Virus record (IMG/VR): IMGVR_UViG_2671180636_000008
DNA length: 5,399 nucleotides
Strand: one strand, 5' to 3'
Origin: a virus
Taxonomy: Duplodnaviria; Heunggongvirae; Uroviricota; Caudoviricetes
The translations under genes were made by a program, and so were the position numbers. The notes beneath the pieces are model-generated. The model worked only from the letters and a program-made list of their open reading frames with translations, ran no database searches and was not told the DNA's origin. Positions 786 through 5,399 of the stretch are shown piece after piece (positions within the stretch are counted from its first letter, which is position 1; each line of letters begins with the position of its first letter).

Positions 786-809
786 TGTTACCAATCTGTT
801 AAAAAGCTG

Positions 810-838
810 TTGACAAATAACCTTAAGCATGAGATGAT
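810..838 (+). promoter_or_regulatory. candidate sigma70-type promoter (weak -10)
   Basis: TTGACA (810-815), 17-nt spacer, GATGAT (833-838; 4 of 6 matches to TATAAT). Oriented towards CDS 1184. Consensus -35 but poor -10; speculative. Confidence 0.2.
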
Positions 839-846
839 GGTAATAG

Positions 847-863
847 GGAAGAGCAACTCTTCC
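847..863 (+). promoter_or_regulatory. short perfect hairpin (7-bp stem, 3-nt loop)
   Basis: GGAAGAG (847-853) - CAA - CTCTTCC (857-863), exact reverse complements. No following T-tract on either strand. Sits just downstream of the candidate promoter. Confidence 0.4.
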
Positions 864-917
864 TGAATTAAACTATTAATCATTCTACATCAATGATAGT
901 TATTCTGAAAGGTGCAA

Positions 918-971
918 TGCTTTTCGCTACATGACCTTTCAGGTTAGTCTGAGAGGTCATCTCGAAAAGTA
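918..971 (+). promoter_or_regulatory. long imperfect hairpin (about 21 bp paired with an internal loop); candidate RNA processing or regulatory structure
   Basis: Inner stem ATGACCTTTCAG (931-942) / CTGAGAGGTCAT (949-960): 12 bp with one G-U pair, 6-nt loop GTTAGT. Outer stem TGCTTTTCG (918-926) / CGAAAAGTA (963-971): 9 bp with one G-U pair. The two stems are separated by an asymmetric internal loop (CTAC / CT). No flanking T-tract. Confidence 0.5.
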
Positions 972-986
972 CTCTTGTTCATTCGT

Positions 987-1008
987 TTGAATCCTTTTTG
1001 AATCCTTT
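987..1008. repeat. tandem direct repeat, 2 x 11 bp (TTGAATCCTTT)
   Basis: TTGAATCCTTT at 987-997 is immediately repeated at 998-1008, exact, in non-coding DNA. Confidence 0.7.
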
Positions 1009-1108
1009 AGATGTTTTAATTTCTTCACCTTATGAATGGCCCTTTATAAGAAATTATCTAGGGCTATTCAGCTTTTAAAAAGCATACTTGGCAAACCGCC
1101 TTTTAAGT

Positions 1109-1175
1109 CTCTTCTAAGTTTAGATAGGCTGTCAGGTGTGCTTTTTAAAAACTGAAACACTTCCGCTTAGAAGAG
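1109..1175 (+). promoter_or_regulatory. 10-bp inverted repeat whose 3' arm overlaps the ribosome-binding site of CDS 1184
   Basis: CTCTTCTAAG (1109-1118) is the exact reverse complement of CTTAGAAGAG (1166-1175), with a 47-nt spacer. The 3' arm covers part of the Shine-Dalgarno GAGGA (1173-1177), which lies 6 nt before ATG 1184. Confidence 0.35.
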
Positions 1176-1183
1176 GAAAAGCA

Positions 1184-4496: not shown

Positions 4497-4508
4497 TTTA
4501 ACGGTGTT

Positions 4509-4561
4509 CTACGTGAATAAAGCAAAGTTAATACCCACACCAAAAATTATTTTTCACGTAG
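4509..4561 (+). promoter_or_regulatory. 9-bp perfect inverted repeat with 35-nt spacer immediately downstream of the tape measure gene
   Basis: CTACGTGAA (4509-4517) and TTCACGTAG (4553-4561) are exact reverse complements. The spacer is AT-rich and ends in TTATTTTT. Not a canonical terminator, since the T-run precedes rather than follows the 3' arm. Confidence 0.3.
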
Positions 4562-4592
4562 CTCACGCTTAACAGAGAAAATACATATATAT

Positions 4593-5020
<428 letters not shown>

Positions 5021-5264
5021 NNNNNNNNNNNNNNNNNNNNNNNNNNNNNNNNNNNNNNNNNNNNNNNNNNNNNNNNNNNNNNNNNNNNNNNNNNNNNNNN
5101 NNNNNNNNNNNNNNNNNNNNNNNNNNNNNNNNNNNNNNNNNNNNNNNNNNNNNNNNNNNNNNNNNNNNNNNNNNNNNNNNNNNNNNNNNNNNNNNNNNNN
5201 NNNNNNNNNNNNNNNNNNNNNNNNNNNNNNNNNNNNNNNNNNNNNNNNNNNNNNNNNNNNNNGG

Positions 5265-5399
5265 AAGCTGGACTATTCAGACTTAACAGAAGCTGAAAAA
5301 ACCAACGTCACCAATGCTAATAGTAACGCTGGTCGAGTAGCTTCAAAGCTTAAAAAGTACTCAGTGTGCAAAATGGCATCTGAATCGATCGCAGTTTGG
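5265..5399 (+). CDS. partial ORF of unknown function, open to the window end
   Basis: After the mask only this frame is open (KLDYSDLTEAEKTNVTNANSNAGRVASKLKKYSVCKMASESIAVW); the other two + frames stop at 5284-5286 and 5294-5296. Its frame differs from the open frame before the mask. Start unknown (inside the mask, or ATG 5382). Confidence 0.3.

Follow-up and report, generated by a model that had tools for sequence, protein, structure and literature searches.

The spacer upstream of gene A

The window analyzed here is a 5,399-nt stretch of DNA from the IMG/VR virus record IMGVR_UViG_2671180636_000008 (Caudoviricetes), every gene of which lies on the + strand. At positions 786-1183 it contains a spacer directly upstream of a gene that we call gene A, the first of a two-gene cassette (genes A and B) followed by genes for a tape measure protein and a Dit-like protein. 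The comparison set comprised 88 distinct copies, 83 stretches having been added by a metagenome scan with the promoter string. Across these copies the spacer has a conserved promoter, a covarying structure on the + strand, two complementary versions of a loop/Shine-Dalgarno (SD) pair and a terminator-like anatomy, and it has no conserved open reading frame (ORF). We read it as a real, conserved and undescribed regulatory RNA region, new in its arrangement but not in its kind. Its features are as follows.

786-1183, + strand: spacer under study, a control region without a conserved ORF
798-806, + strand: A-rich tract TTAAAAAGC, directly 5′ of the -35 hexamer and near-invariant in relatives; putatively UP-element-like in function
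810-815, + strand: -35 hexamer TTGACA, 17-bp spacer to the -10
830-838, + strand: extended -10, with TG at 830-831 (conserved among relatives), A, and GATGAT at 833-838
845-846, + strand: predicted transcription start, 7 to 8 nt past the -10, placed by promoter geometry
846-864, + strand: M1, 5′-terminal purine/pyrimidine hairpin (GGGAAGAG / CUCUUCCU) right after the predicted start, from folding
865-905, + strand: M2 hairpin, from folding
907-926, + strand: core GAAAGGTGCAATGCTTTTCG, containing P2c, a 7-bp hairpin in RNAalifold (907-913 / 919-925, loop GCAAU)
931-960, + strand: P3 hairpin, 12 bp, from covariation
986-1007, + strand: 11-nt exact tandem duplication (TTTGAATCCTT, twice), private to the window copy
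1039-1074, + strand: T2, terminator-like hairpin (GCCCU...AGGGC, 1039-1064) with tail UAUUCAGCUU, from comparison of copies
1067-1156, + strand: long hairpin (LH), arms 1067-1093 and 1130-1156, 27 bp with one mismatch and three G-U pairs, from inverted repeat and covariation
1109-1118, + strand: anti-SD CUCUUCUAAG in the apical region of LH, from complementarity
1166-1175, + strand: CUUAGAAGAG, complement of the anti-SD, overlapping the SD AGAGGA (1172-1177)

An earlier reading of the window from its letters only (here the sequence-only reading) had picked out the TTGACA box and suggested a late promoter. The box is present, with its 17-bp spacer, TG and GATGAT, and the promoter is conserved; its hexamers, spacing and TG are those of the extended -10 sigma-70 class, and it appears to be a near-consensus host promoter of that class rather than a "late" phage promoter. 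Ten of the 12 hexamer positions match the sigma-70 consensus in the window and 11 of the 12 in L026, an annotated relative, both with TG, and the L026 promoter is the top sigma-70 match across its 10-kb island. TTGACA is invariant in the 19 copies that were fetched without the promoter as bait, while the -10 hexamer reads CATAAT in 76 of the 88 copies and the weaker GATGAT in 10, the window included. Taken alone, the match in the window is no better than chance in such AT-rich DNA: a match of promoter grade arose in 47 of 200 shuffles of the window, and eight promoter-like sites were found in it against 10.3 expected. The weight of the promoter comes from its invariance across relatives.

That the spacer lacks a protein-coding gene held up insofar as no ORF is conserved among the 88 copies, the longest ones (21 to 59 codons) differing in place and sequence; the accompanying limit of 30 codons did not, since the window itself has an ORF of 39 codons (ATG, 1036-1155). 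A tRNA/tmRNA scan of the spacer found none. Rfam searches gave no credible match for the window at E values up to 10 (spurious plant miRNA and snoRNA models on the long hairpin were far below threshold) and no match for the whole island at E values up to 1.

The view of the spacer as highly structured was borne out. RNA of 845-1200 on the + strand has a folding energy of -112.9 kcal/mol, compared to -73.7 ± 5.0 for dinucleotide shuffles (z = -7.9, with none of 100 shuffles as good), and the - strand gives a z of -4.8. Hairpins or inverted repeats are confirmed in the spacer at 846-864, 865-905, 931-960, 1039-1064 and 1067-1156, with inverted repeats in the window at 871-901, 931-960 and 1067-1156. 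An outer stem of the window's minimum free energy fold, GCUUUUCG/CGAAAAGU, was rejected: half of the copies have A for G there, giving C-A.

Across the 88 copies the leader family is a mosaic of modules. A hairpin forms at the M1 position in all 63 distinct 5′ segments, sequence change notwithstanding, and M2 occurs in three unrelated sequence versions, all foldable. Fifteen nucleotides of the core, GTGCAATGCTTTTCG, are unchanged in every copy (88/88); the invariant leader stretch within the core reads GUGCAAUGCUUUUCG, and the only two variable positions of the core preserve pairing (A-U to G-U and G-U to A-U). P3 is conserved in shape, its 25 sequence variants each giving a stem of 10 to 13 bp. 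Between P3 and T2, an optional module holds a clean terminator, T1 (GCCCUAA...UUAGGGC plus a U run), in 59 of the 88 copies; the window lacks it. In T2, GCCCU/AGGGC is invariant, one inner pair covaries and the loop admits insertions of 0 to 30 nt, with a tail of U4-7 in 75 of 85 copies and of UAUUC in the window. The long, interrupted interior of the window's T2 kept a simple terminator scan from picking it up. As for the exact tandem repeat of the sequence-only reading, it exists but only in the window copy, relatives holding a single unit of the TTTGAATCCTT type.

Two AT palindrome-like motifs that had also been noticed, GCTTTTAAAAAGC (1071-1083) and GCTTTTTAAAAAC (1140-1152), are indeed present; they are not operators, however, but parts of the two arms of a single 27-bp hairpin, LH. 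Conservation of structure across relatives is seen as covariation in both LH and P3. In LH, 13 of the 27 pairs have changed on both sides and 94.8% of cells are paired, compared to 34 to 54% in slide controls, the covariation score being unmatched in 500 shuffles; the hairpin occurs in four sequence versions. In P3, double changes affect 6 of the 12 pairs and 98.6% of cells are paired, versus 42 to 59% for slid partners, in a model-fitted alignment.

The structure also has a strand. G-U cells in LH outnumber A-C cells (G-U on the - strand) by 86 to 31, and mean folding energies on the + and - strands are, respectively, -16.0 and -10.5 kcal/mol for the P3 variants and -35.4 and -25.3 kcal/mol for the LH region. 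With a covariance model built on P2c and P3, each locus yields a single strong match, on the gene strand (68 to 94 bits), and only weak mirror matches on the other strand; no second copy was found in 0.8 Mb, the site always lying in the same place, one per island. The G-U excess, the fold energies and the strand bias of the covariance model favor selection acting on + strand RNA over a DNA site.

What ties the leader to gene A is the loop of LH. The anti-SD in its apical region (1109-1118) is exactly complementary to the 10 nt at 1166-1175 that overlap the SD. Of 67 distinct loop/SD combinations, 66 give loop-to-SD duplexes with energies between -13 and -23 kcal/mol, the lone exception being L094 (-10.3 kcal/mol), where a different gene lies 3′ of the leader. 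The family has two complementary loop/SD pairs, UCUUCUAAG with CUUAGAAGA and UUCACCUCU with AGAGGUGAA. LH versions three and four use the second pair, at shifted positions; both partners have therefore changed without loss of complementarity.

Proposed gating of gene A and its alternatives

Overall, we see a slightly better than even case for the spacer controlling a self-contained transcription unit (~810-2262), in which a leader of ~340 nt would gate the two-gene cassette by leaky termination and masking of the ribosome site. The unit is taken to be self-contained because a promoter precedes the cassette and a 15-pair terminator-like hairpin follows gene B. The strong host-type sigma-70 promoter (A-tract, TTGACA, 17-bp spacer and TG-extended -10) would act constitutively and start the RNA at about 845, the first ~220 nt of which would fold as a row of hairpins, i.e., M1, M2, the invariant P2c and P3. 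Most transcripts would probably end at T1 or T2 and be left as a hairpin-rich small RNA. Read-through transcripts would carry LH, whose apical loop would pair with the SD region of gene A and render them translationally silent by default. Expression of A and B would thus need both locks open, that is, read-through plus unmasking, the latter perhaps by an RNase III cut of the long stem or by a factor acting on the invariant hairpin. A near-perfect, A/U-rich duplex of 27 bp is the kind of substrate that RNase III cuts, and cleavage would release the SD from the anti-SD, in the manner of the lambda N leader. The invariant P2c hairpin stands between the promoter and the terminators, which is the place to look for an antitermination signal. 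What we infer here from the sequence comprises where transcription starts, how efficient termination is, that the cassette is off by default and what the trigger would be.

Two suggestions of the sequence-only reading survive in modified form. A regulatory hub is consistent with the conserved promoter, the + strand RNA structure and the link to control of gene A, though not in the sense of an operator. A small noncoding RNA is plausible as well, ending at the terminator-like hairpin T2; the 5′ part of the leader probably accumulates as an RNA of ~220 nt in the window copy.

Several points weigh against the gate. The UUCACCUCU class does weakly in the shuffle test (z of -1.5 to -3.0), and pyrimidine-rich loops readily pair with any purine-rich SD. 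The five base pairs of T2 never vary, so that covariation is neutral on T2 and gives it no support. In the window copy, both the -10 (GATGAT) and the T2 tail (UAUUC, an interrupted U-tract) are weak variants, which suggests that this copy may have decayed in part. For the leader, the start site, the 3′ ends and any processing are predictions made from the sequence. The A-B cassette appears to have no functional match, so that the biological logic of a gate is conjectural. Finally, the model gives no role to the 15-nt core, the most conserved part of the leader.

The core has a role in an alternative that we regard as unlikely overall, namely, that the promoter and T1/T2 delimit a stand-alone trans-acting small RNA, with the invariant core as the seed for host or helper-phage mRNAs and LH merely the 5′ untranslated region of gene A. 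The architecture would suit such an RNA: a strong promoter and a 5′ hairpin come first, then a 15-nt block invariant in 88/88 copies, and a U-tailed terminator follows. Moreover, part of the core, GTGCAATGCTTTTC (window 920-933), is a perfect 14-nt complement to the sense strand of the Felixounavirus phage dune at 41929-41942, for which a rough estimate of the chance expectation is ~0.001 to 0.003. However, the dune site lies within an unannotated small coding gene (a 69-aa ORF, homologue of Felix01p174) and its synonymous positions have drifted in other Ounavirinae (13/14 in ASO1B and 12/14 in Mooglevirus), and for these reasons we treat the target as unproven. Shuffled cores match equally well once G-U pairs are permitted, complements of the core of at least 9 nt are absent elsewhere in the island but for one chance 9-mer, and half of the core is already paired in P2c. 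A trans-acting RNA would, in any case, be compatible with the cis-acting gate.

Rather improbable, in our estimate, is that P2c and P3 constitute a promoter-proximal signal for processive antitermination, either factor dependent like lambda nut or RNA only like HK022 put, such that T1/T2 would let through only polymerases from this promoter and would halt those arriving from the upstream operon. The order of elements matches: a promoter, two adjacent stem-loops (~55 nt, 907-960), one or two terminators and then genes. One stem-loop is invariant in sequence and the other conserved in shape only, and two terminators, as in 59/88 copies, would otherwise leave the cassette nearly silent. The components of a lambda-type nut are missing, though: there is no boxA (CGCUCUUUA-like) sequence on the + strand of 845-1066, GCAAU, the loop of P2c, does not resemble the GNRA-like pentaloop of boxB, and no N-like or Q-like protein was recognized in the island.

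Two further readings seem very improbable. Peptide-dependent attenuation, in which translation of a leader ORF (AUG 917-919, MLFAT* in the window) would remodel P3 and the downstream structure, could draw on the SD-like AAGG 4 to 5 nt before this AUG in the invariant core and on the UGA stop (932-934) in the base of P3, but a 2-nt indel (CGCTAC versus CGTC) shifts the frame, giving a peptide of 5 aa in some copies and at least 23 in others, the SD and AUG are buried in P2c, and a G911A variant weakens the SD while keeping the base pair. A DNA-level role for the spacer (replication origin, packaging site, recombination site or operator array), with incidental hairpins, would suit its AT-rich sequence, its many inverted repeats, an HNH endonuclease gene ~0.5 kb upstream and other signs of phage dependence in the island, but the compensatory changes use G-U pairs, which are A-C mismatches on the other strand, conserved iterons are absent, the lone tandem repeat being private to the window copy, and the short matches to a phage terminus (see below) sit elsewhere in the island, outside the spacer.

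The surrounding island and Felix O1-type phages

The genes around the spacer in the window are as follows.

2-229, + strand: end of one gene
376-708, + strand: gene of 110 aa
708-785, + strand: hydrophobic ORF of 25 aa, MTLVILWMTLGLFVGCWVGNTVNKN, overlapping the stop of the upstream gene (ATGTAATG)
1184-2191, + strand: cassette of genes A and B, starting with ATG 1184-1186; the ORF enters an N-masked stretch
2217-2262, + strand: strong, intrinsic-terminator-like hairpin, 15 pairs plus a T run, just past gene B and before the tape measure gene
3′ of the 2217-2262 hairpin, + strand: tape measure protein gene, with PF20155 and phrog_4036 profile matches
4653-5399 (L026 24012-24797), + strand: Dit-like gene, after the tape measure gene

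Four runs of N (529-568, 1726-2083, 2269-2558 and 5021-5262) mask coding parts, among them the 5′ end of the tape measure gene; the run at 1726-2083 hides the boundary between genes A and B. The 25-aa ORF abuts the promoter A-tract at its 3′ end; it is kept in relatives, with a second divergent allele. The spacer 5′ of the Dit-like gene (4497-4652) is likewise strongly structured, with two hairpins at 4509-4561 and 4592-4635 (z = -4.1), and relatives repeat part of it (4505-4577) between gene B and the tape measure gene.

The sequence-only reading had placed the spacer in a compact cluster of phage structural genes. It lies instead in an island of ~11 kb and ~38% GC in Escherichia, which we read from two annotated examples (L025 6700-19700 and L026 15300-29000). 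In both, a small serine recombinase marks the left border and a large serine recombinase the right one. The island adjoins wrbA or is inserted between yciI and tonB, and contains ~1.4 kb of noncoding DNA and several small genes of unknown function (among them that of the HNH endonuclease), followed by the spacer, gene A, gene B, the tape measure gene and the Dit-like gene. Only the last two are recognizable tail genes, and all spacers of the island are long; the premise of a packed structural operon was therefore wrong. L026 carries an equivalent terminator after gene B (21623-21660). Also in L026, the interval 18229-18294 separates a 62-aa gene on the - strand from the main + strand operon of the island and holds two near-consensus promoters that diverge back to back, a - strand one reading TTAACA-18-TATAAT and a + strand one reading TTGACA-17-TAGGAT, in a layout like that of a switch region.

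Matches to the island were found in 467 of 5,426 complete E. coli genomes, without exception on the chromosome. The core 20-mer of the spacer, GAAAGGTGCAATGCTTTTCG, retrieves 13 viral contigs plus genomes of Escherichia albertii, Escherichia sp. and Citrobacter, and relatives of the downstream protein are encoded on six IMG/VR contigs. An exact promoter string was not found in IMG/VR. A 20-mer match in a metagenome-assembled genome of Eubacteriales (L023) was discarded as a chance terminator and not a relative. The spacer, its flanks and the gene that follows have no match among 50,697 phage records. Metagenome contigs spanning the whole island show no terminal overlaps and thus no sign of circular forms. 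In the literature searched, no description of the sequence, the island or a Felixounavirus satellite was found.

Gene A encodes 236 aa in the relative L025 (12604-13314) and gene B ~69 aa. Searches with gene A gave no match in Pfam, PHROGs, NCBIfam or PADLOC and only ~7 full-length representatives in a library of 1.8 billion proteins. Its AlphaFold model (predicted local distance difference test [pLDDT] score of 80) is a coiled coil plus a small alpha/beta domain, for which Foldseek returned no match below an E value of 0.001 in the PDB or in the viral BFVD library. RefSeq labels gene A a "transposase" in many genomes, a name we regard as unsupported because neither the profile libraries nor the fold search back it. 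Neither gene A nor gene B resembles either of the two tape-measure chaperones of Felixounavirus. Gene A exists as two very divergent alleles (23 to 28% identity) behind a common leader, and it or a distant homologue, A′, is present in 87 of the 88 copies; the GC content of the cassette matches that of its neighbors.

Over its first ~185 residues the Dit-like protein shares ~100% identity, and over its whole length 76%, with the product of the gene after the tape measure gene in phage dune (MN850636 58936-59736). At the DNA level, window positions 4677-5020 are 94 to 95% identical to the best of 256 matching phage records, which are mostly of the Felixounavirus type. This identity suggests recent exchange with, or dependence on, virulent Felixounaviruses. 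The island tape measure protein is only ~30% identical to that of Felixounavirus, and the island gene order mirrors the phage block chaperone-chaperone-TMP (tape measure protein)-gp88. In the window, the Dit-like gene looks like a pseudogene: compared to L002, L006 and the phage gene, it misses 74 nt at 4800/4801, with a resulting frameshift and a stop at 4803-4805, and PHROG profile positions 52-75 are absent.

Two short matches link noncoding DNA of the island to the left terminus of the phage, L026 16672-16698 to dune 420-446 (27 nt, 96%) and L026 17127-17168 to dune 674-717 (45 nt, 87%), both between the same two noncoding regions; these could mimic a packaging or terminal signal. Elsewhere in dune, an intergenic region (80619-80681) has a - strand promoter whose A-tract and -35 (GTTAAAAAAGTTGTTGACAAA) resemble those of the island and, next to it, a 20-nt stretch with 19/20 matches to the LH apical sequence of L001, TTAAGTCATCTTCTAAGTAT. 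This resemblance may be due to chance, given the AT-rich composition.

The near-identity of one gene to its phage counterpart, the phage-terminus matches and the serine recombinases at both ends lead us to consider, as a rather improbable and more far-reaching proposal, that virulent Felix O1-type phages have in this island a satellite or decoy element not described before. The leader would then be an infection-responsive switch, working by put-like, RNA-only antitermination or by phage-triggered antitermination or processing, that keeps the tape-measure-associated cassette silent although its promoter fires constitutively and releases it only on arrival of the helper.

If the gate holds, the leader (~340 nt) would represent a new structured RNA family that Rfam does not contain and that roughly 9% of complete E. 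coli genomes carry, with two locks under one constitutive promoter, i.e., a leaky terminator and an anti-SD set in a 27-bp hairpin. It would also mark the regulatory center of an apparently undescribed island that shares near-identical tail gene sequence with Felixounaviruses, virulent phages that find use in phage typing and biocontrol. Identifying the unlocking trigger would be a direct route to the effect of the island on these phages, and the island itself may prove a more interesting object than the leader.

Comparison with known systems

A close layout is that of the lambda PL-nutL-N leader, in which a long hairpin 5′ of the first ribosome-binding site (RBS) reportedly represses N until cut by RNase III. 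Both have a strong early-type promoter, promoter-proximal stem-loops and a long duplex hairpin before the RBS of the first gene. Here, in contrast, there is no boxA or boxB, and a terminator lies within the leader before the gene. Repression in our case would apparently be exerted by the loop-embedded anti-SD, whereas in lambda it involves a protein at nut; a role for RNase III is suggested here by analogy. HK022 put offers a likeness of layout only: two adjacent stem-loops ahead of terminators, with no dedicated antiterminator protein evident.

In P1/P7 c4, P4 CI and N15 CA, as proposed for the leader, a regulatory RNA comes from the target's own constitutive promoter, its loops pair with the downstream RBS region or trigger termination, and specificities vary by matched changes in loop and target. 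The C4 antisense RNA family is Rfam RF01695. The spacer shares with this group a loop complementary to the downstream RBS region of the same transcript. It differs in having no Rfam match and no cloverleaf or RNase P-type fold, and the downstream gene is not a recognizable antirepressor.

The cassette resembles a phage moron in having its own sigma-70 promoter and terminator among tail genes. Unlike a moron, it is fixed in essentially every island copy rather than sporadic, its composition is like that of its surroundings, and it has a 340-nt leader. The proposed order of promoter, noncoding RNA, leaky terminator and protein gene recalls type III toxin-antitoxin systems (ToxIN), but conserved tandem RNA repeats are absent, and neither a nuclease or toxin signature nor a PADLOC match was found for gene A. 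A tandem-repeat RNA of the ToxI type was accordingly rejected, the sole repeat being the 11-nt duplication private to the window copy, compared to arrays of ~36-nt units in ToxI. Set against these systems, the combination of a leaky terminator and an anti-SD hairpin as two locks under one promoter appears to be a known device in a new arrangement.

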